A stretch of 64,000 bases of DNA from an uncultured Solirubrobacterales bacterium (GTDB lineage: Bacteria; Actinomycetota; Thermoleophilia; Solirubrobacterales; 70-9): NCBI GenBank assembly GCA_963805455.1, contig CAWDUJ010000004.1, positions 32,627-96,626 on the forward strand, in the 5' to 3' direction. The position numbers were made by a program, and so were the translations under genes. Of the stretch, positions 25,275-64,000 are shown in pieces (position 1 is the stretch's first letter; every line of letters starts with the position of its first letter). The notes beneath the pieces were generated by a model. The model had not been told where the DNA came from. It saw only the letters and a program-made list of their open reading frames with translations, and did not search any database.

Positions 25275-26784
25275 CGAGCAACGACCGCCCGCTCATCGCC
25301 TCCGGCTGCTCGATTCCGAGCAGCTGCAAAGCGGTCGGGGCGACGTCGGCCAGGACCCCGCCCGAGCGCAGCTCGAGCCCGGCCGCGGTGACGATCAGCG
25401 GCACCGGGTTCAGCGAGTGGGCGGTGTTGGGCGAGCCGTCGGGCTCGAGCATGTGGTCGCAATTGCCGTGGTCGGCGGTGATGATGCAGGCACCGCCGGT
25501 ATCGATGACCGCAGCGACGACCTCGCCGAGACAGGCGTCGACCGCTTCGACCGCGGTGACCGCGGCCGGGATCACGCCGGTGTGGCCGACCATGTCCGGG
25601 TTGGCGAAGTTGAGGACCCCGAAGCCGTACTCGCCGCCCGACCAGCCGTCGACGAACGCGGCGGCGGCGGCCCGGGCGCTCATCTCCGGCTTGCGGTCAT
25701 AGGTCGGGACCTCGCGCGCGGACTCGACCAGCCGCCGGTCTTCCCCCTCCCACTCCTGCTCGCGGCCGCCGTTGAAGAAGTAGGTGACGTGGGCGTACTT
25801 CTCGGTCTCGGCGACGTGGAGCTGGCGCCTGCCGGACTCGGCGATCACCTCGGCCAGGGTCGTCTGCGGGCGCGCCTCGGGGAAGGCGACCGGGTAGGGC
25901 CAGCCCTGGCGGTACTCGGTCATCGTCGTCAGGTCGAGGACCGGGCCGCCGCTGCGCGAGAACTCCTCGAAGCCGGGTTCGGCCAGCGCCCGGGTCAGCT
26001 CGCGGGCGCGATCGGGGCGGAAGTTGAGGAAGATCGCGACGTCGCCCGCCGCCGCCCCGTCGTACCCGCCGATCACCGTCGGCTTGATGAACTCGTCGGT
26101 CTCGTCGCGGTCGTATGAGGCCTTGATCGACTCCGCCGAGGTCTCGGCGCCGAGGCCGCGGCCGTGGACGATCGCGTCATAGGCGAGCTTGGTCCGCTCC
26201 CAGCGGGTGTCGCGATCCATCGCGTAGAAGCGGCCGGAGACGGTTCCGACCCGACCCGCCCGGTAAAGCCAGCGCTCGAGCTCCTCGACGTAGCCGGCGC
26301 CTCCGTGGGGCAGGGTGTCGCGGCCGTCGGTGAAGGCGTGGAAGACGACGTCGGGGACGCCCTCCTGGGTGGCGAGCTCGATCGCGGCCTCGATGTGCTC
26401 CCAGCCGGAGTGGACGCCGCCGTCGGAGACGAGCCCGAGCAGGTGGAGCCGGCCGCGGGGACTGCGGCGGGCACGCTCACAGGCCGCCCTCAGGGCATCG
26501 TTCTCGAAGAAGCTGCCGTCGGCGACCGCGTCGTCGATTCGGGCCAGGTCCTGCTTGACGACGGCGCCGGCGCCGAGGTTGAGGTGGCCGACCTCGGAGT
26601 TGCCCATCTGCCCTTCGGGGAGGCCGACGTCGCGCCCCTGGGCGGAGAGCTGCGTGTGGGGGAACTCCGCCCAGAGCCGGTCGAAGACCGGCGTCTCGGC
26701 GAGCGAGATCGCGTTGCCGGGGCCGGAGTCGGCGATACCCCAGCCGTCGAGGATGACCAGCGCGACCGAGGGGACGGTGGGCAC
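25264..26784 (-). CDS. gpmI: 2,3-bisphosphoglycerate-independent phosphoglycerate mutase
   Basis: LVILDGWG, SEVGHLNLGAG, RFYAMDRD, ADHGN. Confidence 0.95.
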   Translation of the reverse strand: MPTVPSVALVILDGWGIADSGPGNAISLAETPVFDRLWAEFPHTQLSAQGRDVGLPEGQMGNSEVGHLNLGAGAVVKQDLARIDDAVADGSFFENDALRAACERARRSPRGRLHLLGLVSDGGVHSGWEHIEAAIELATQEGVPDVVFHAFTDGRDTLPHGGAGYVEELERWLYRAGRVGTVSGRFYAMDRDTRWERTKLAYDAIVHGRGLGAETSAESIKASYDRDETDEFIKPTVIGGYDGAAAGDVAIFLNFRPDRARELTRALAEPGFEEFSRSGGPVLDLTTMTEYRQGWPYPVAFPEARPQTTLAEVIAESGRRQLHVAETEKYAHVTYFFNGGREQEWEGEDRRLVESAREVPTYDRKPEMSARAAAAAFVDGWSGGEYGFGVLNFANPDMVGHTGVIPAAVTAVEAVDACLGEVVAAVIDTGGACIITADHGNCDHMLEPDGSPNTAHSLNPVPLIVTAAGLELRSGGVLADVAPTALQLLGIEQPEAMSGRSLLDEA

Positions 26785-27560
26785 TACCCGGCCGCCTCGA
26801 CGATCGCCGCGAATTCGGCCGGATCGAGGCTGGCGCCGCCGACCAGGGCCCCGTCGATGTCGGGCTGGGCCATCAGCTCGGCCGCGTTGTCGGGCTTGAC
26901 CGAGCCGCCGTAGAGGATCCGGACCCGGTCGGCCTCCGCCCCGCCCTCGCGCAGCACGTCGCGGATGAAGGCGATCGTCTCCTGGGCCTGCTCGGGGGTC
27001 GCGGTGCGACCTGTCCCGATCGCCCAGATCGGCTCGTAGGCGATCGTCACCTCCGCCACCCGGGTCGGATCGACGGCGGCGAGATCGGCCCGCAGCTGGC
27101 CCTCGAGCACGGCGTCAGTCTGTTCCGCGTCACGGGCCTCCTCGGTCTCGCCGACACAGAGGATCGGGTCGAGACCCGCCGCGAGCGCCGCCGGGACCTT
27201 GCGAGCCAGGGCCTCGTCGGTCTCGCCGAAGAGCTGGCGGCGCTCGGAGTGGCCGAGGATGACCGCCTCGACGTCGGCCTCGACCAGCATCGGCGCCGAG
27301 ACCTCACCGGTGAACGCCCCGGACTCCCCCTCGTGCATGTTCTGGGCGGCGACACGGACGGCGCTCCCGCGCGATCGCTCGACCACCTCGCTCAGCGCGA
27401 GGAAGGACGGGCAGATGACGACGTCGTGCTGGGTGGCGGCGATTCGCGGCAGCAGCGCGTCGACGAACTCCGCCGCCTCGGCGACGGTCTTGTTCATCTT
27501 CCAGTTGGCGGCCAATAACGGGGTCCGCGTGCTCTGCTCCCGCTCGCTCGCGCTCATCAT
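26784..27560 (-). CDS. tpiA: Triose-phosphate isomerase
   Basis: AANWKMN, GHSERR, AYEPIWAIGTG. Start taken at ATGATG 27555-27560, overlapping the pgk stop. The longer track ORF is a shadow over pgk. Confidence 0.9.
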   Translation of the reverse strand: MMSASEREQSTRTPLLAANWKMNKTVAEAAEFVDALLPRIAATQHDVVICPSFLALSEVVERSRGSAVRVAAQNMHEGESGAFTGEVSAPMLVEADVEAVILGHSERRQLFGETDEALARKVPAALAAGLDPILCVGETEEARDAEQTDAVLEGQLRADLAAVDPTRVAEVTIAYEPIWAIGTGRTATPEQAQETIAFIRDVLREGGAEADRVRILYGGSVKPDNAAELMAQPDIDGALVGGASLDPAEFAAIVEAAG

Positions 27561-27604
27561 CCCCGGTTTCCTCGCTCGCTCGCACCCGCGTCCGCCGCGG
27601 ACCC
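27521..27604 (-). repeat. Palindromic element copy J (family A), straddling the pgk stop and tpiA start
   Basis: Terminal arms GGGTCCGCG/CGCGGACCC. Shares the 16-mer CCGCGGCGGACGCGGG and the 18-mer CGGGAGCAGAGCACGCGG with copy U. Confidence 0.75.
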
Positions 27605-28873
27605 GCGGTCTAGTAGTGCCTCCACTCCGGGCAGGGTTTTTCCCTCCAATAGCTCCAAGGATGCTCCTCCTCCGGTTGAAATCCAGTCGATTCGGTCGGC
27701 CAGCCCGAACTGGTGCACTGCCGCGACCGAATCGCCGCCGCCGACCACGGTCATCCCCGGCGCCGCGGCGACCGCCTCGGCGACGGTGCGGGTCGCCGCG
27801 GCGAAGGGCTCGAGCTCGAAGGCGCCCATCGGGCCGTTCCAGAGGACCGTTCCGGCCGCGGCGATCGCCTCCGCGTAGGAGGCCGCGGTGCGGGGGCCGA
27901 CGTCGAGGCCCATCCAGCCGTCGGGGACCTCGACCCCGTCGCTCTCGCGGCGCTCGGTCTCGGCGTCGAAGCTCCTGCCGAGGACGAGGTCGACGGGGAG
28001 CTCCAGATCGCAGTCCGATCCCTCGGCCCGCCTCAGCGCCTCGGCGGCGAGCTTCACCCCCTCCTCCTCGACCAGCGAGTCGCCGGTGGCGATCCCCTCG
28101 GCGCGGAAGAAGCTGAAGCACATCGCGCCGCCGATCAGGATCCGGTCGGCGATCTCGAGAAAGCGGTCGATGACCCCGACCTTGTCGGAGACCTTGGCGC
28201 CGCCGAGGACGACCACCAGGGGCCGCGCGGGGGATTCGACGACGGCGGTCAGCTCGGTGACCTCGCGCTCGAGCAGAAGCCCGGCGTAGCCGGGCAGGAG
28301 GTGGGCGACGCCCTCGGTGCTGGCGTGGGCCCGATGGGCGGCGCCGAAGGCATCGTTGACGTAGATTCCGGCGAGGGCGGCGAGCCGCCGCGCCAACCCG
28401 GGGTCGTTCTCGGTCTCACCCGGCTCGAAGCGGAGGTTCTCGAGCAGCAGAATCTCGCCCGGGCCGAGCCCGGCGGCCAGCTCCTCGACCTCGGCGCCGA
28501 CCACCGCCGGCGCCTGCCCGACCTCGGCGCCGAGGAGCTCGGCGAGGCGGGCGCCGACCGGCGCCATCGAGAGCTCGGGGTCGGGCTTGCCGCCGGGACG
28601 CCCTAGGTGCGAGGCGAGGACGATCGAGGCGCCGCGCTCACGCAGGAGTTCGATCGTCGGCAGCGCCGCCCTGATCCGGGTGTCGTCTCCGACGACATAT
28701 TCCGCCGCCTCCTCTGCTCCCGCTCGCCCGGGAGAGTCAGATATGGATCCGGGCTCGCTCCCGCGTCCGGGGGCGGCGGGCGTGGCTTTCAAAGGTACGT
28801 TGAAATCCACGCGGAGCAGCACCCGCTCGCCCGCGACGGGGGCGTCGCGGACGCTTGCCTTCGAGAAGCTCAC
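27557..28873 (-). CDS. pgk: Phosphoglycerate kinase (carries a 26-aa in-frame insert and a 15-aa tail)
   Basis: VDFNVPL...DDTRIRAALPTI...GGGDS. Insert is PAAPGRGSEPGSISDSPGRAGAEEAA. Confidence 0.95.
   Translation of the reverse strand: MSFSKASVRDAPVAGERVLLRVDFNVPLKATPAAPGRGSEPGSISDSPGRAGAEEAAEYVVGDDTRIRAALPTIELLRERGASIVLASHLGRPGGKPDPELSMAPVGARLAELLGAEVGQAPAVVGAEVEELAAGLGPGEILLLENLRFEPGETENDPGLARRLAALAGIYVNDAFGAAHRAHASTEGVAHLLPGYAGLLLEREVTELTAVVESPARPLVVVLGGAKVSDKVGVIDRFLEIADRILIGGAMCFSFFRAEGIATGDSLVEEEGVKLAAEALRRAEGSDCDLELPVDLVLGRSFDAETERRESDGVEVPDGWMGLDVGPRTAASYAEAIAAAGTVLWNGPMGAFELEPFAAATRTVAEAVAAAPGMTVVGGGDSVAAVHQFGLADRIDWISTGGGASLELLEGKTLPGVEALLDRGSAADAGASERGNRG
28702..28779 (-). repeat. 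Palindromic element copy P (family A), in-frame inside pgk
   Basis: 78 nt. Arms CCGCCGCC/GGCGGCGG, blocks CGGACGCGGGAG, TCCATATCTGACTCT and CGGGAGCAGAG shared with copy U. Confidence 0.75.
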
Positions 28874-31937: not shown

Positions 31938-32849
31938 TTACGAGTCGAGCTCGACGTCGCGGTGCTTGACCCGCAGGGTCACGTCCTCGCGCCCGTCGAG
32001 ATCGCGCCGGATGCGGTCGGCGACGGTCACCGAGCGGTGGCGTCCCCCCGTGCACCCGATTGCGATCGTGAGGTGGCTCTTGCCCTCGGCGACGTAGGCG
32101 GGGACGAGGAAGTCAAGCAGTGGCAGCAGCCTGCCGTAGAACTCTCCGGCCTGGGTCCCCGACTCGACGTACTCCCGCACCTCCCTGTCGAGGCCGGTCA
32201 GCGGCCGCAGCTCGTCGACGTAGTGGGGGTTGGGGAGGAAGCGGACGTCGAGGGTCAGGTCCGCGTCCCGCGGGGGGCCGTTCTTGAACCCGAAGGTGAG
32301 CAGGGTCAGGGCGAGCTTGCCGCCGCCGTCGCTGCCGAGCATCTCCTCCGCAATCCGGCTTCGAAGGGCGCCACTGGTGAGGTCGCTGGTGTCCATGACG
32401 ACGTCGGCCCGGGCCCGCAGCGGCGAGAGCAGCTCGCGCTCGGCCCGGATCCCCTCGACGATCCTTCCCTCAGGAGCGAGAGGGTGGCGGCGGCGGGTCT
32501 CCTTGTAGCGGTCGACCAGGGTCTCCTCGTCGGCCTCGAGGAAGAGGACCCTCGGCTTCACCCCGTCGGCGTCGAGGTCGTCGAGCACCTGGATCAGGTC
32601 GTCGAAGTAGTCGCCGCCTCGCACGTCGGAGACGACCGCGGCCCGCTCGACGCCGCTGCCGGGGTGGCGGAAGAGCTCACCGAGGCTGCCGATCATCCGC
32701 GGTGGCAGGTTGTCGACGCAGAAATAACCGCCGTCCTCGAAGGCGGCGATCGCCTCCGACTTGCCGGCCCCGGAGTGGCCGGTGATGACGACCATCGTCA
32801 CCCCGGGCTCGGCGCTCGCCCCGTCTGCCTGCGAATCCTCGGCCATCAA
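31938..32849 (-). CDS. rapZ: RNase adapter / nucleotide-binding protein RapZ (YvcJ)
   Basis: VVITGHSGAGKSEA...FCVDNLP...IGCTGGRHRSV. Confidence 0.9.
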   Translation of the reverse strand: MMAEDSQADGASAEPGVTMVVITGHSGAGKSEAIAAFEDGGYFCVDNLPPRMIGSLGELFRHPGSGVERAAVVSDVRGGDYFDDLIQVLDDLDADGVKPRVLFLEADEETLVDRYKETRRRHPLAPEGRIVEGIRAERELLSPLRARADVVMDTSDLTSGALRSRIAEEMLGSDGGGKLALTLLTFGFKNGPPRDADLTLDVRFLPNPHYVDELRPLTGLDREVREYVESGTQAGEFYGRLLPLLDFLVPAYVAEGKSHLTIAIGCTGGRHRSVTVADRIRRDLDGREDVTLRVKHRDVELDS

Positions 32850-34801
32850 CCTGTCCTGTTCAGCTGCTCGTGGATGTCGCGGGCCACTTTGCCAGGGACC
32901 CCGGGCACCGCCTCGAGTTCCTCCCTGGTGGCCGCGACCAGCCGCTCCGGCGAACCGAAGTGCTGGAGGAGGGCTCGCTTCCGCGCCTGGCCCACGCCCT
33001 TGATCTCGTCGAGGACCGAGCCCGTCATCGCCCTGTCGCGGCGGCCGCGGTGATGCTCGATCGCGAACCGGTGGGCCTCGTCGCGGATCCGCTGCAGCAG
33101 CTTCGAGGCCTCGGAGTCGGCGGCGAGGTCGACCGGGACCGAGCGACCCGGGACGAAGACCTCCTCCTCGCGCTTGGCGAGCGAGGCGACCGTGACCCCG
33201 CGCTCGACGAATGGCTGCAGCGACCGCATCGCGGCGGCGAGCTGACCCTTGCCGCCATCGACAACGACCAATGAGGGCAGCGACGCGAAGCTCGAGTCGC
33301 GTTTGCCGTCATGCGGCGAGAGATCGGCCTGCTCGAGGTAGCGGTTGACCCGCCTGGTCAAGACCTCTTCAACTGCCGCAAAGTCGTCCTGCCTCCCACC
33401 CGCCCGCGGCGGACGCGGGAGGACATCGCCGTCCATTTCTGACTCTTTGGCGGTGTCCGGGAGCAGAGCACGCGGGCGGAAATTGATTTTGAAGCGCCGG
33501 TAGTCCGACTTCTTCGTCGCGCCGCCCTCGAAGACGACCATCGAGGCGACCGTGTGCTCGGCCCCGAGGTTGGAGATGTCGTAGCCCTCGATCCGGATCG
33601 GCAGCTCCTCCATCGCCAGCGCCTCGCGCAGGTCGGCGAGCGAGTCGACCCGGCGCTGGCGGCGGTGCTCGCGACGGAGGCGGTCCTGGTCGAGGGCGAG
33701 GCGCGCGTTGCGCTCGGCGAGCTCGCGCAGGCGCCGCTTGTCGCCGCGCTCGGCGACCCGTACCTCGACCGGCGCCCCGCGCTCCTCGCTGAGCGCGGAG
33801 GCGAGCAGCTCGGCCCGGTCCGCCAGGTAGGGCCCGACGACGATCGTCCGCGGAACCGAGGGCGAGGCCGAGTAATACTGACCGAGGAACTCCTCGGCGA
33901 CCTCGGCGGGCTCGCGTTCGGCCTGGTTGTCGAGGTAGAAGCTCTGGCGCTCGGCGAGGATCCCGTCGCGGACCTGGAAGACCTGGGCGTTGGCGTCGGC
34001 CCCCTCGGTGGCGACCCCGATCAGGTCGGCCGTTCCGACAGACCCGCCGGCGATCCGCTGCCGCTCGAACAGGGACCGGATCGCCTTCAGTCGGTCGCGG
34101 TGGACCGCCGCCCGCTCGAATTCCTGCGATGCCGCGGCGGAATCCATCTTCGCCTCCTCGTCCGCCTCGACCTGGCGGTAGTGACCGGAGAGGAAGGCGA
34201 CGATCGCGTCGATGTTGCGACGGTACTCATCGCTGCTGATGTATCCGACGCAGGGCGCGCCGCAGCGCTTGATGAAGTAATCGAGGCAGGGGCTGCCGGA
34301 GCGGCGGCCCGGCTCGGCTCCCTCGCAGGTGCGGAACTGGAACAGCTTGCCGAGCAGGTCGAGTGTCTCGCGGACCCGCTTGGCGCTCGAGAAGGGGCCG
34401 AAGTAGGCGCGTCCGGGACGGTGCTTTTCGCGGGTGAAGTAGACCCGCGGGTACTCCTCGTCGAGACTGACGCAGACGTAGGGATAGGACTTGTCGTCGC
34501 GGAGGCGGATGTTGAAGCGCGGGCGGTGGCGCTTGATGAAGCTCTGCTCGGCGAGCAGGGCCTCAGCCTCGGTCGCGGTGACCAGGAACTCGATCCTCTC
34601 GACCCGCGAGGTGAGCCGGGTCTCGCCGCCGGAGAAGTGGGAGGCGACGCGTTTGCGGATCGAGCGCGCCTTGCCGACGTAGAGCAGCTCGTCATCGCCG
34701 CCATGGAAGAGGTAGACGCCCGGGGAATCGGGCAGCTCGCGGCGCTGCTGCGCGATCCGCTCCGCCCGCGTCCCGCCCTCATCTCCGTGCTCTTCGGCCA
34801 T
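32846..34801 (-). CDS. uvrC: Excinuclease ABC subunit C (carries a ~26-aa in-frame insert)
   Basis: GIY-YIG module GVYLFHGGDDELLYVGKA and a C-terminal HhH. Insert RPRALLPDTAKESEMDGDVLPRPPRA lies between the FKI and DDFA motifs. Confidence 0.95.
   Translation of the reverse strand: MAEEHGDEGGTRAERIAQQRRELPDSPGVYLFHGGDDELLYVGKARSIRKRVASHFSGGETRLTSRVERIEFLVTATEAEALLAEQSFIKRHRPRFNIRLRDDKSYPYVCVSLDEEYPRVYFTREKHRPGRAYFGPFSSAKRVRETLDLLGKLFQFRTCEGAEPGRRSGSPCLDYFIKRCGAPCVGYISSDEYRRNIDAIVAFLSGHYRQVEADEEAKMDSAAASQEFERAAVHRDRLKAIRSLFERQRIAGGSVGTADLIGVATEGADANAQVFQVRDGILAERQSFYLDNQAEREPAEVAEEFLGQYYSASPSVPRTIVVGPYLADRAELLASALSEERGAPVEVRVAERGDKRRLRELAERNARLALDQDRLRREHRRQRRVDSLADLREALAMEELPIRIEGYDISNLGAEHTVASMVVFEGGATKKSDYRRFKINFRPRALLPDTAKESEMDGDVLPRPPRAGGRQDDFAAVEEVLTRRVNRYLEQADLSPHDGKRDSSFASLPSLVVVDGGKGQLAAAMRSLQPFVERGVTVASLAKREEEVFVPGRSVPVDLAADSEASKLLQRIRDEAHRFAIEHHRGRRDRAMTGSVLDEIKGVGQARKRALLQHFGSPERLVAATREELEAVPGVPGKVARDIHEQLNRTG
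33400..33479 (+). repeat. Palindromic element copy U (family A), inside uvrC and antisense to the gene
   Basis: Arms CCGCCCGCG/CGCGGGCGG. Inner 10-bp stem GGACATCGCC/GGCGGTGTCC surrounds loop GTCCATTTCTGACTCTTT. Confidence 0.75.
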
Positions 34802-57894: not shown

Positions 57895-58743
57895 CTAGCT
57901 GAGCGTGAATCCGGAGAGCAGGCGTTTCTCGCTCTCCCCCTCGATCTTGGCGACGACCTCTACCCGCCCCTCGAGCGGCGTGCCGCGGATCTTCGTCGCC
58001 AGCAGGTCGTCGACCTGGAAGATCCCGGCCGAGTTGTTGAGGTCGATCTCGATCCGCACCGCGCGCTCCTCCCCGGCCTCGATCCGGACCTCGTCGACGG
58101 CCGCGGCCGAGATCGAGTGGATCCCCTCGCGTCCCGCCTCCATCGGGATCCGGATCCGGCCCTGCGCCATGTCGAGCGCATCGGCGACGCGGACGACTCC
58201 GGCCTCGACCGTGTAGGGCTCGCCGCGGCGGCGGTGGCCGATGATCGCGTGGAGGATCTCGGAGGCGATCACGGTCCGTTTCGGCTCACGATAGGCGTCG
58301 GCGAGAAGCCGATCGAGGGCGCCCGCAGCGAGGAAGAGGCTGTAGGCCTCGTGGTCGTTGCGGTGGATCGACATCCCGATGTCGTGGAGCAGGGCGCCGC
58401 CGGCGACGACCACCTCGGCGTCCCGCGAGGGGAGCCCGTGGTCGGTGACAACCGCCGGCTCGACGCCGGCCTTGACCAGCAGCCGCAGCAGCCGCAGCGC
58501 GATGTTGAGGACGATCTGCATGTGGACCCAGGAGTGGTCTGACATCCCGAGCCGTTCGGCGTGCACCTGGGCCATGTACCACCAGGTGCGCACCTGCTCG
58601 TCCTCGTTCACAGCCGAGAGGAAGCTCTCGAGCTTGCGATTGCCCCGGGTTGGCGCCCGGACCTCCGACTCGGCGATCGCCTCCTCGAGCGGCTTGCGAG
58701 CAGGCCCGTCGGGGTCCGGAGCGGGAACTCGCTCTTCATTCAT
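57895..58743 (-). CDS. HD-domain phosphohydrolase
   Basis: SDHSWVHMQIV...LLHDIGMSIHRNDHE are HD motifs. Confidence 0.75.
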   Translation of the reverse strand: MNEERVPAPDPDGPARKPLEEAIAESEVRAPTRGNRKLESFLSAVNEDEQVRTWWYMAQVHAERLGMSDHSWVHMQIVLNIALRLLRLLVKAGVEPAVVTDHGLPSRDAEVVVAGGALLHDIGMSIHRNDHEAYSLFLAAGALDRLLADAYREPKRTVIASEILHAIIGHRRRGEPYTVEAGVVRVADALDMAQGRIRIPMEAGREGIHSISAAAVDEVRIEAGEERAVRIEIDLNNSAGIFQVDDLLATKIRGTPLEGRVEVVAKIEGESEKRLLSGFTLS

Positions 58744-58752
58744 GACAAATCC

Positions 58753-58811
58753 TCGCGCTTCACTCGCTGCGCGAAGAAACAGAAGATGACGCTTGCCCGC
58801 TCCGCGCTCAC
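58753..58811 (-). repeat. Family B leader repeat, copy R1 (ends 9 nt before the HD gene ATG)
   Basis: Minus-strand read is GTGAGCGCGGAGCGGGCAAGCGTCATCTTCTGTTTCTTCGCGCAGCGAGTGAAGCGCGA. Confidence 0.8.
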
Positions 58812-58860
58812 GAGAGGAGATCGTAGGGGAGAGGAAGGCGCGACCCGCCCAAACAATGGA

Positions 58861-58918
58861 TCGCGCTTCGCTCGCGGCGCGAAAATCAGAAGATGACGCT
58901 TGCTCGCTCCGCGCTCAC
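58861..58918 (-). repeat. Family B leader repeat, copy R2 (its GTGA supplies the stop of the rpf-like gene)
   Basis: Minus-strand read is GTGAGCGCGGAGCGAGCAAGCGTCATCTTCTGATTTTCGCGCCGCGAGCGAAGCGCGA. Confidence 0.8.
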
Positions 58919-63429: not shown

Positions 63430-63488
63430 GTGAGCGCGGAGCGAGCAAGCGTGCATATCTGGTCCTTCGCGCAGCGAGAGAAGCGCGA
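63430..63488 (+). repeat. Family B leader repeat, copy R3 (ends 9 nt before the oxidoreductase ATG)
   Basis: GTGAGCGCGGAGCGAGCAAGCGTGCATATCTGGTCCTTCGCGCAGCGAGAGAAGCGCGA. About 50 of 59 positions are identical to R1 by hand alignment. Confidence 0.8.
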
Positions 63489-63497
63489 GAGCCTGTG

Positions 63498-64000
63498 ATG
63501 GCTGAGCGGGAATTCGACGCAATCGTCCTCGGCGCCGGAGCTCCCGGGGAGGTCTGTGCCGGCCGCCTCGCCGAAGGCGACCTCAGGGTCGCGATCGTCG
63601 AGCCCGGGCTCCTCGGCGGCGAATGCTCCTACTACGCGTGCATGCCCTCGAAGGCCCTGCTGCGCCCCGGCGAGCTGCTCGCCGAGGCCCGCCGGGTCCC
63701 CGGCGTGCTGCAGGCGGTCACCGGAAGCCTCGACCCCGAGGCGACGCTGGCGAGGCGCGACGAGGTGATCCACGACCTCGACGACTCGGGTCAGCTGTCC
63801 TGGCTCGAGGGCCGCGGCATCAAGCTCTTTCGCGGCGCCGGCCGGCTCGACGGCGAGCGCCGGGTCGTGGTCGGTGACGACGTCCTGACCGCGGCGAGGG
63901 CGATCGTCGTCGCCACCGGCAGCAGCGCGGAGATGCCGCCGATCGACGGCCTCGACACGGTGCGGGCCTGGAACAACCGTGAGGGGACGACCTCGCGGCG
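63498..64000 (+). CDS. Class I pyridine nucleotide-disulfide oxidoreductase (dihydrolipoyl dehydrogenase / mercuric reductase-like), partial
   Basis: Not in the ORF track because there is no stop in the window. Reads MAEREFDAIVLGAGAPGEVCAGRLAE...GGECSYYACMPSKALL, with the redox CxxxxC. Confidence 0.8.
   Translation, partial: MAEREFDAIVLGAGAPGEVCAGRLAEGDLRVAIVEPGLLGGECSYYACMPSKALLRPGELLAEARRVPGVLQAVTGSLDPEATLARRDEVIHDLDDSGQLSWLEGRGIKLFRGAGRLDGERRVVVGDDVLTAARAIVVATGSSAEMPPIDGLDTVRAWNNREGTTSR

Follow-up and report, generated by a model that had tools for sequence, protein, structure and literature searches.

The glycolytic genes gap, pgk, tpiA and gpmI are arranged head to tail along a 64,000-nucleotide stretch of contig CAWDUJ010000004.1 (assembly GCA_963805455.1, positions 32,627 to 96,626), which stems from an uncultured Solirubrobacterales bacterium, here genome G000, and which we call the window. 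All coordinates are window positions, and the element discussed below as well as the four genes are read on the minus strand. Where pgk ends and tpiA begins sits copy J, one copy of a dispersed hairpin repeat (Table 1). Judged by comparison with related genomes, copy J is in all likelihood a lineage-specific insertion: a small hairpin repeat of a dispersed, non-autonomous kind entered a junction at which the pgk stop and the tpiA start overlapped, and it now supplies the end of the one gene and very probably the beginning of the other.

The layout of the junction

Read from 27604 to 27521, the element runs GGGTCCGCG-GCGGACGCGGGT-GCGAGCGAGCG-AGGAAACCGGGGATGATGAG-CGCGAGCGAGCG-GGAGCAGAGCA-CGCGGACCC. 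Its outer arms, GGGTCCGCG and CGCGGACCC, form a perfect 9-bp inverted repeat with 66 nt between them, as a first-pass annotation made from the sequence had pointed out; a 9-bp inverted repeat is in itself unremarkable here, with three perfect inverted-repeat pairs of at least 9 nt within 351 nt. The centre of the element, GGGGATGATGA, was described in the same annotation as containing the coupled pgk TGA and tpiA ATG, and these are indeed found there, overlapping as ATGA at 27560-27557 and followed by a second ATG and a second TGA. A GAGGA, which resembles a Shine-Dalgarno (SD) sequence, sits 8 nt 5' of the loop ATG, in a loop predicted to be unpaired.

The two reading frames pass through the element from either side. 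PGK reads ..LPGVEALLD-RGSAADAGASERGNRG* and ends at the loop TGA, so the repeat does encode a C-terminal tail, with a length of 16 residues (an R and the 15 residues listed originally) rather than 15. The tpiA frame opened by the loop ATG, MMSASEREQSTRTPLLAANWKMN, runs into the conserved ..PLLAANWKMN. The Pfam PGK profile stops at residue 412 of 438, and the Pfam TIM profile starts at P14 of TpiA as counted from the loop ATG.

Table 1. Features of the pgk-tpiA junction in the window (nt, nucleotides; aa, amino acids; MFE, minimum free energy)
Feature	Position	Strand	Basis or remark
Copy J, dispersed ~83-nt hairpin repeat, subfamily A (long loop)	27521..27604	-	BLAST, nhmmer, covariance model
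Outer stem P1, 5' arm GGGTCCGCG; also encodes G-S-A of the PGK tail	27596..27604	-	perfect complement of 27521-27529
Outer stem P1, 3' arm CGCGGACCC; overlaps tpiA codons R-T-P	27521..27529	-	inverted repeat and relatives
Inner stem P2, 5' strand GCGAGCGAGCG; G-C pairs alternate with tandem G.A mismatches	27573..27583	-	folds
Inner stem P2, 3' strand CGCGAGCGAGCG	27541..27552	-	folds
Apical loop, 20 nt, AGGAAACCGGGGATGATGAG; SD-like GAGGA (27573-27569) and stop/start motif	27553..27572	-	unpaired in MFE and consensus folds (predicted)
pgk stop TGA, element-borne	27557..27559	-	second in-frame TGA at 27554-27556
tpiA start ATG, most likely	27558..27560	-	ATGA overlap with pgk stop; in frame with tpiA; second in-frame ATG at 27555-27557
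PGK C-terminal tail, element-derived, 16 codons, RGSAADAGASERGNRG	27560..27607	-	
TpiA N-terminal leader, element-derived, 13 codons, MMSASEREQSTRT	27522..27560	-	
Alternative TTG start (giving M-AANWKMN), judged unlikely	27513..27515	-	
pgk, 438 aa, tail included	27557..28873	-	
tpiA, 258 aa from the loop ATG	26784..27560	-	

The junction in related genomes

What did the junction look like before the repeat arrived? In 19 of the 22 congeners sampled it is compact (GATGCCTGAG), with neither the PGK tail nor the TpiA extension. Aligned, these junctions read ..CTG CTG GAT GCC TGA GCG CAC CCC CTA CAT C..; PGK ends ..AL(L/R)DA*, and the tpiA ATG inside GATGCCTGA overlaps the stop and gives MPERTPYIAANWKMH (start MPERTPYIAANWKM). 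From this alignment we take G-ATG-CC-TGA-G to be the ancestral junction. In G000 the repeat takes the place of TGCCTGAG(CGC), and the ancestral stop (in GATGCCTGA) and the ancestral tpiA ATG are both gone. The proposal that both proteins carry element-derived termini is therefore supported, since the large majority of congeners have the compact form instead; the PGK tail does lie beyond the normal end of the protein, but that end is ..AL(L/R)DA* and not ..LPGVEALLD as had been assumed.

A query reaching from the loop into early tpiA was run against 162 genomes of the genus. Most match in the tpiA part only, while about a dozen have repeat sequence at the pgk-tpiA site, and in seven besides G000 the repeat, or what remains of it, is found there, with an ATGA in frame with tpiA in each. 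G133 (PGK ..RGSAADAAASERGSRG*; tpiA MMDASERERSTRTMCLAANW) has the same arms as G000, and G177 (tpiA MMSPNEREQSTRAEFVRTPYIAANW) has a full consensus element, in frame. In G122 (locus L081, C9:342628-342805) two units stand in tandem with a period of 83 nt: PGK stops in the first loop, tpiA starts at the ATGA of the second, and from the first-loop ATG to the second-loop TGA runs a unit open reading frame (ORF) of 28 codons, MMSASEREQSTRSRSAADAGASERGSRG*, which makes a three-step ATGA relay from pgk over the unit ORF to tpiA. Tandem units can form such a stop/start relay because the unit length of 83 nt equals 2 mod 3. The junction of G022 (tpiA MSASEREQSTRTRYLAANW) has a different left half, longer by 45 nt, and a PGK tail of 33 residues. 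Reduced remnants, ..GAGCG-ATGA-CGCGGACC.., are found in G154 and G087 (tpiA MTRTPLLAANW), and a decayed remnant with the ATGA overlap in G011 (PGK ..LLRCPIRE*; tpiA MTRPRNRERVRRPYVAANW).

Shorter traces occur as well. G102 (L083) and G164 (L087), with TpiA starting MPE-STRTPLL and MPDQSTRTHML, combine the ancestral ATGCCTGA with the last 15-18 nt of the repeat, and G020 (L025) keeps the ancestral ATGCCTGA with 15 extra nt (STRTA) that match the 3' end of the repeat; the extra nucleotides in these three genomes, which give (Q)STRT(P/A/H) behind MPE or MPD, may be deletion footprints or the products of recombination. No allele with a tail or an extension lacks the repeat or some recognisable trace of it, so that relatives with these additions but no repeat signature, which would have spoken against an origin from the element, did not turn up.

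A family of dispersed hairpin repeats confined to one genus

That copy J belongs to a repeat family, as the first-pass annotation had it, was confirmed by three methods. A BLAST search of the 2.53-Mb, 15-contig G000 assembly with the whole copy J stretch yields about 20 further copies, 80-89% identical along 70-76 nt; a profile hidden Markov model (HMM; nhmmer) finds about 45, with copy J at E=1e-14; and with a covariance model the count is 47, copy J scoring 92.9 bits (E=9e-20) in a match that covers 27516-27610. By the covariance model, 21 of 24 congeners have between 1 and 17 copies, G000 is highest at 47, and none was found in 16 genomes from the order's other genera. By these counts, the family is confined to a single genus of uncultured Solirubrobacterales. 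An exact-pattern scan of contigs with a very strict pattern matched five loci, the hosts being metagenome-assembled genomes (MAGs) of uncultured Solirubrobacterales; a generic repeat finder run over the whole window did not report the family, because its copies diverge too much or lie too far from one another.

Two subfamilies can be told apart, with common basal modules (CCGCC..CGGACGCGGGAGCGAG / CGAGCGGGAGCAGAG..GGCGG) and unlike apical hairpins. Their consensus fold is a rod, in which an outer stem of about 10 bp is followed by G-C dinucleotide steps with symmetric purine loops (tandem G.A) and topped by an apical loop of about 20 nt. The internal-loop sequences CGGACGCGGGA and GGGAGCAGAG are conserved in every copy; in several, the second GA/GA step of P2 is swapped for Watson-Crick pairs (TT/AA, CC/GG, GC/GC). 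The loop consensus of subfamily A, CCGG[GTGA]TC[ATGA]G, contains two in-phase RTGA motifs. Double-sided changes are seen at 13 of 22 pairs, with a covariation score of 0.30 against 0.02-0.11 in slid controls, and none of 500 shuffles reaches this score. As a known Rfam RNA family the element was rejected: the best hit in a scan of the junction, to an unrelated model, scored 14 bits (E=1.9) and lay outside the element.

The copies show a strong sense bias relative to genes. With respect to flanking ORFs of high G+C content at third codon positions (GC3), about 31 copies are in sense orientation, 7 are antisense and 6 ambiguous. Downstream starts that are fixed by homology sit 3-10 nt past the 3' arm, as in carB (MPRRDDIQKILLIG), a trpG-like gene (MNVLVIDNYDSF), ychF (MKVGIVGLPNAGKST), an epimerase gene (MFGRIDHIGV) and nuoF. 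Of 21 copies of subfamily A, 9 have the loop start in frame with a long ORF downstream, and in 5 it opens a mini-ORF of 14-17 codons whose stop overlaps the downstream start (TGATG, ATGCCTGA, ATGCCTAG); in 4 of the 21 the gene upstream reads into the 5' half of the repeat in one common frame and terminates at the loop TGA, and three copies besides J give it the tail ..PPAADAGASE(R/Q)G.R*. On this evidence the family would seem to target, or to survive at, start codons and overlapping junctions, carrying codons that keep translation flowing. The units are mostly single: the G000 junction has one, no tandem arrays were noted among the G000 copies, and the G122 junction has two 83-nt units.

One of these four copies, between nuoE and nuoF (G000 C9:258530-258624; loci L056-L078), is laid out like copy J. 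NuoE gains the tail SPPGPDAGASERGLRS*, which ends in the repeat loop; a mini-ORF of 15 codons runs from the loop ATG, and its stop, the TGA of ATGCCTGA, overlaps the nuoF start. Most relatives have an empty junction here, ..GACGCCGATGCCTGAGAC.., with the same GATGCCTGAG motif as at pgk-tpiA, and others have unrelated inserts at precisely this place, a different hairpin of about 75 nt in G014 and G011 and a G-rich insert of about 30 nt in G010, G020 and G005.

Two more copies in the window would be translated as part of a protein. One, of the short-loop subfamily, lies in frame in the N-terminal domain of pgk itself (28700-28780, minus strand), as an insert of 81-84 nt or about 27 residues between NVPL and DDTRIRA (..NVPLKAT-PAAPGRGSEPGSISDSPGRAGAEEAAEY-VVGDDTRIRA) that is unique to G000 among the 25 genomes aligned; pgk is bracketed by two direct repeat copies 1.2 kb apart. 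The other (33398-33480) lies antisense, and in frame, in uvrC (ORF 32846-34801, minus strand), where it adds some 27-28 residues between ..DYRRFKI and QDDFAAVEEVL.

The outer arms and the folding of the junction

The arms of copy J record part of its history. Their inner part (CGCGG/CCGCG) equals the family consensus, whereas the outer five pairs read GGGTC/GACCC against a consensus of CCGCC/GGCGG, a difference of three compensatory double changes. The ACCCC on the 3' side of this outer stem is ancestral tpiA coding sequence. In G177, the full consensus 3' arm is intact, with 15 more nt, and AATTTGTGAGG stands between the arm and ACCCCG; the G000-type junction therefore looks as if 15 nt had been deleted in frame and the 5' arm had then been matched anew. 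The arm state of G000 recurs in G133 and in the first unit of G122, while one more compensatory change (GCTCC/GGAGC) is seen in the second G122 unit. The re-matching could reflect selection for the helix, but equally quasipalindrome template switching, which homogenises the arms of an inverted repeat in one multinucleotide step and yields compensatory changes without selection (PMC7202029, PMC8604942).

Could the hairpin, and its outer 9-bp arms in particular, be a regulatory RNA, which makes tpiA translation depend on that of pgk or serves as a site of mRNA processing or stability? Such a role, which could add to an insertion rather than replace it and of which the gating of tpiA coupling by the arms, proposed in the first-pass annotation, is one version, strikes us as doubtful, if not without arguments on its side. 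The covariation extends over two stems and is strong, as is the sense bias of the copies; the outer arm of copy J pairs with tpiA codons by way of three compensatory changes that are common to G133; and a ribosome terminating in the loop would already have melted the 5' strand. However, P1 is missing from the orthologous alleles of G022, G154, G087 and G011, all of which have the ATGA. Further, the MFE of copy J, -44.5 kcal/mol, reveals no extra stability over shuffled sequences (z=+0.28), and z-scores were not significant for copy J on either strand, for two other copies and for the G022 and G011 junctions, because the high G+C content lets shuffled sequences fold equally well. The counts of G.U versus A.C pairs, small at 5 versus 3, give no sign of maintenance at the RNA rather than the DNA level, and template switching offers a source of compensatory changes that needs no selection. 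Gating by the arms thus found no support, and from the comparison of copies and alleles P1 appears to be a generic feature of the family, not one special to pgk-tpiA. For the hairpin in general, a role is plausible as a model, in that a ribosome that ends there would find the 5' strand already open, a state that would favour re-initiation.

The start codon of tpiA

With the ancestral start gone, tpiA very probably begins at the loop ATG, either the first or the second, as the alleles described above suggest. The ATGA overlap of the pgk stop with an ATG in frame with tpiA is present in eight genomes (G000, G133, G122, where it occurs twice, G177, G022, G154, G087 and G011), and it is this in-frame ATGA, kept despite rearranged, truncated or duplicated flanks, that strongly favours the loop ATG over a downstream TTG. 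Frame was kept through the 15-nt deletion that leads from the G177 to the G000 type, a deletion of 27-30 nt in G154 and G087, and the 45-nt longer left half in G022 and G154, and the 83-nt tandem unit of G122 and the short remnants of G102 and G164 likewise keep the relevant frame; by chance, this would be expected once in three for each length change.

A start at the TTG just 3' of the repeat is the competing possibility. The first-pass annotation had put such a codon at 27516-27518, but 27518-27516 is TTA, and the TTG lies at 27515-27513. If it were used, the loop ATG would open nothing functional or only deliver ribosomes, and TpiA would have no element-derived leader. The TTG owes what appeal it has to its position, 6 nt past the arm, as the downstream start lies 3-10 nt past the 3' arm in most copies of the family, and to related alleles in which a TTG or ATG precedes AANW at -1 to -3. 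We nevertheless consider it improbable. No SD sequence stands upstream of it, and the region 5' of it is paired in P1 in the predicted fold; starting there would trim two residues off the Pfam TIM domain; and G022 has CTG at this position, with an in-frame stop 13 codons upstream, leaving the loop ATG as the sole canonical start before the catalytic N-W-K. In G154 and G087 an ATG stands directly before TRTPLL, and at least five independent upstream rearrangements all hold the frame from the ATGA to tpiA.

Several points nonetheless weigh against translation from the loop ATG. The support for it is strong, but it comes from sequence comparison. The TTG does occupy the usual spot of a downstream start, a few nucleotides past the 3' arm, and with a TTG or ATG 1-3 codons before AANW in several element-bearing alleles, a second or alternative start is possible. 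Chance alone would put the loop ATG in frame in one third of copies, and for at least one copy, that at the trpG-like gene (C3:154003), the true start lies, by homology, past the repeat. In addition, all genomes compared are MAGs, in which homopolymer indel errors could upset arguments that turn on the frame of a single base. The two starts predict different proteins: from the loop ATG, TpiA would yield peptides from MMSASEREQSTR, while from the TTG it would begin M-AANWKMN.

Discussion

What can be concluded from these comparisons about the origin of the junction? The apical loop of about 20 nt carries RTGA, a start and a stop codon with an overlap of 4 nt. The pgk frame reads through the 5' half of the repeat, adding 16 residues, and stops at the loop TGA; in the scenario we favour, tpiA would start at the loop ATG and read through the 3' half, adding 13 residues, into ..PLLAANWKMN. 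The repeat would thus act as a portable translational-coupling cassette, and its insertion between two essential glycolytic genes would be tolerated because it swaps one overlapping stop/start for another. As to the course of events, we infer that the repeat inserted just upstream of the start and in frame, the state seen in G177, that a 15-nt in-frame deletion then took out the old start together with the outer 3' arm, and that the 5' arm was finally re-matched to the tpiA codons, be it by selection or by quasipalindrome template switching.

Two considerations temper this scenario. In a gap-pgk-tpiA tree, G000 pairs with the insert-free G016 (SH-aLRT, the Shimodaira-Hasegawa-like approximate likelihood ratio test, 88) in a clade with G011 and G022 (SH-aLRT 95), and an insert-free genome inside an insert-bearing clade needs two gains, one gain with a precise loss, or an error in the tree, each of which is possible. 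Moreover, the term mobile rests on presence/absence polymorphism and copy-number variation only. No transposase partner or parent insertion sequence (IS) was found for the repeat, and a search for element ends 150-5000 nt apart, as a parent element would have them, met only neighbouring independent copies, one pair of which is the one that brackets pgk. A comparison of filled and empty sites at pgk-tpiA, within pgk and at nuoE-nuoF brought out no clear target-site duplication, only microhomology such as GGCGG and GAGCGC.

Might the repeats, then, not be selfish or mobile at all, but an old regulon of cis-regulatory RNAs, akin to riboswitches or protein-binding sites, with copy J as one regulated site? 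The conservation of the internal loops CGGACGCGGGA and GGGAGCAGAG in all copies, and the sense-biased placement at ribosome-binding sites, would fit such a regulon, but we hold it to be very unlikely. Copies are 80-90% identical to one another, yet polymorphic at orthologous sites between congeners, and a single genus spans copy numbers from 0 to 47. In-frame copies lie inside the coding sequences of pgk and uvrC, one of them antisense, the downstream genes are functionally unrelated (carB, trpG-like, ychF, nuoF, tpiA), and there is no Rfam match. That the repeat was mis-joined into the junction of the G000 MAG, as can happen with dispersed repeats, is barely credible, given that the flanks are collinear with gap-pgk-tpiA-gpmI in all relatives, that both reading frames are intact and that the independent MAGs G133, G122, G022 and G177 have homologous insertions at the same site.

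Among known repeats, the nearest functional analogue of the family is the mycobacterial interspersed repetitive unit (MIRU). According to PMC12548453 (citing Supply et al. 1997 Mol Microbiol 26:991), MIRUs insert at start codons, and an ORF lying inside the unit is coupled to the gene at a -4 spacing, which minimises the effect on expression. By that account, both are short GC-rich actinobacterial repeats located at start codons or operon junctions and co-oriented with the genes, as holds here for the predominance of sense copies and for copy J and the nuoE-nuoF copy, both on operon junctions. Both also have an internal ORF coupled to a flanking gene by a -4 (ATGA) overlap, represented here by the ATGA of eight alleles and the mini-ORFs at five other loci, and in both tandem units relay, as in G122 with its 83-nt period. 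On the other hand, MIRUs form variable-number tandem-repeat (VNTR) arrays of 46-101-bp units, while the units here are mostly single, in uncultured Solirubrobacterales, and fold into a hairpin with covarying stems, tandem G.A pairs and a stop/start in the apical loop. The comparison was one of features and description; Rfam contains no MIRU model.

Other repeat classes share single traits with the family. Rickettsia palindromic elements (RPEs) are palindromic repeats of about 100 nt that lie in frame in unrelated housekeeping genes and are translated as an extra peptide (PMC10969869), much as is seen here within pgk (27 aa) and UvrC (27-28 aa) and in the PGK tail and the TpiA leader. However, RPEs are mainly internal insertions, not known for a stop/start pair that rebuilds a gene junction, and their host is unrelated and their sequence presumably so. 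Miniature transposable elements with inverted repeats (MITEs), enterobacterial repetitive intergenic consensus (ERIC) sequences and Correia-type repeats are likewise dispersed, small and non-autonomous; they end in inverted repeats, are transcribed together with their neighbours, sometimes bear ORFs and fuse to host genes, and undergo lineage-specific copy expansion (PMC10969869, PMC3184786, PMC2759123). The arms of the present family, in contrast, vary in sequence and yet stay complementary, unlike terminal inverted repeats (TIRs) of conserved sequence, and no parent IS or clear target-site duplication was seen with them. Considered as a MITE, the family was rejected for its varying arms and for the lack of any pair of element ends flanking a longer element.

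With repetitive extragenic palindromes (REPs) and their associated tyrosine transposases (RAYTs), finally, the family has in common GC-rich hairpins, stem covariation and copies in the tens (PMC2817692). It differs in that its copies are longer than typical REPs and sense-oriented at start codons, where REPs occur downstream of genes in alternating arrays like those of bacterial interspersed mosaic elements (BIMEs), and in that a Y1/RAYT transposase (PF01797) is absent from G000 (92% complete) while control genomes were positive; an identity with the REP/RAYT system was discarded on this last ground. New, in our view, are the hairpin with tandem G.A steps, the stop/start pair in its apical loop and the host lineage. 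A literature search turned up no account of repeats in Solirubrobacterales.

A more far-reaching idea is offered here tentatively, and with less conviction than the insertion itself: the family could be a self-neutralising mobile translational coupler at the RNA level, whose loop shows an accessible SD sequence and start codon, and thus a hairpin solution reached independently of the MIRUs. Ribosomes arriving from the upstream gene or loaded in the loop would translate the 3' half and thereby unzip the hairpin, and they would be handed to the downstream gene in frame or via a stop/start overlap. The unit length (2 mod 3) would be adjusted such that a relay forms whatever the number of units, and the arms could be re-templated from host coding sequence. 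If such coupling at the RNA level were true, the repeat unit, which could serve as a compact translational-coupling module, would lend itself to use as a synthetic coupling part.

Seen as an insertion, the junction would be a natural case in which a selfish repeat entered the overlapping junction of two essential glycolytic genes and broke neither. The series of alleles within the genus (empty, full, deleted, duplicated, footprint) would record the replacement of start codons and gene ends in the course of time, and would extend the MIRU principle beyond mycobacteria to a deep-branching, largely uncultured actinobacterial order. On the practical side, gene-calling programs and annotators will get starts and stops wrong near such repeats, of which there are 47 copies here, many at ribosome-binding sites.

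Related hairpins elsewhere in the genome

Short-loop copies also occur at G000 C1:108677, C6:42563, C6:305642 and C6:60498, inside high-GC3 open frames of 800-1150 codons; they are either in-frame insertions or mark places where two genes were fused by loss of a stop to the repeat. A second set of hairpins in the window, family B, measures about 62 nt and is found at 58736-58918 (minus strand) and 63430-63505 (plus strand), with the form TGAGCGCGGAGCGAGCAAGCG - loop TCATCTTCTGATTTTC - GCGCAGCGAGYGAAGCGCGAG and with the sequence GTGAGCGCGGAGCGAGC at 58795-58811, 58902-58918 and 63430-63446. The likeness between the centre-right part of copy J and family B that had been noticed at the outset is real, though loose. 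Elsewhere in the genome, hybrids (C9:118573, C2:88072, C15:10641) combine outer modules of the B type with the apical hairpin of family A. The family B hairpins stop a few nucleotides before start codons, as in ..GATTTGTC-ATG-AAT.. and ..CCTGTG-ATG-GCT...

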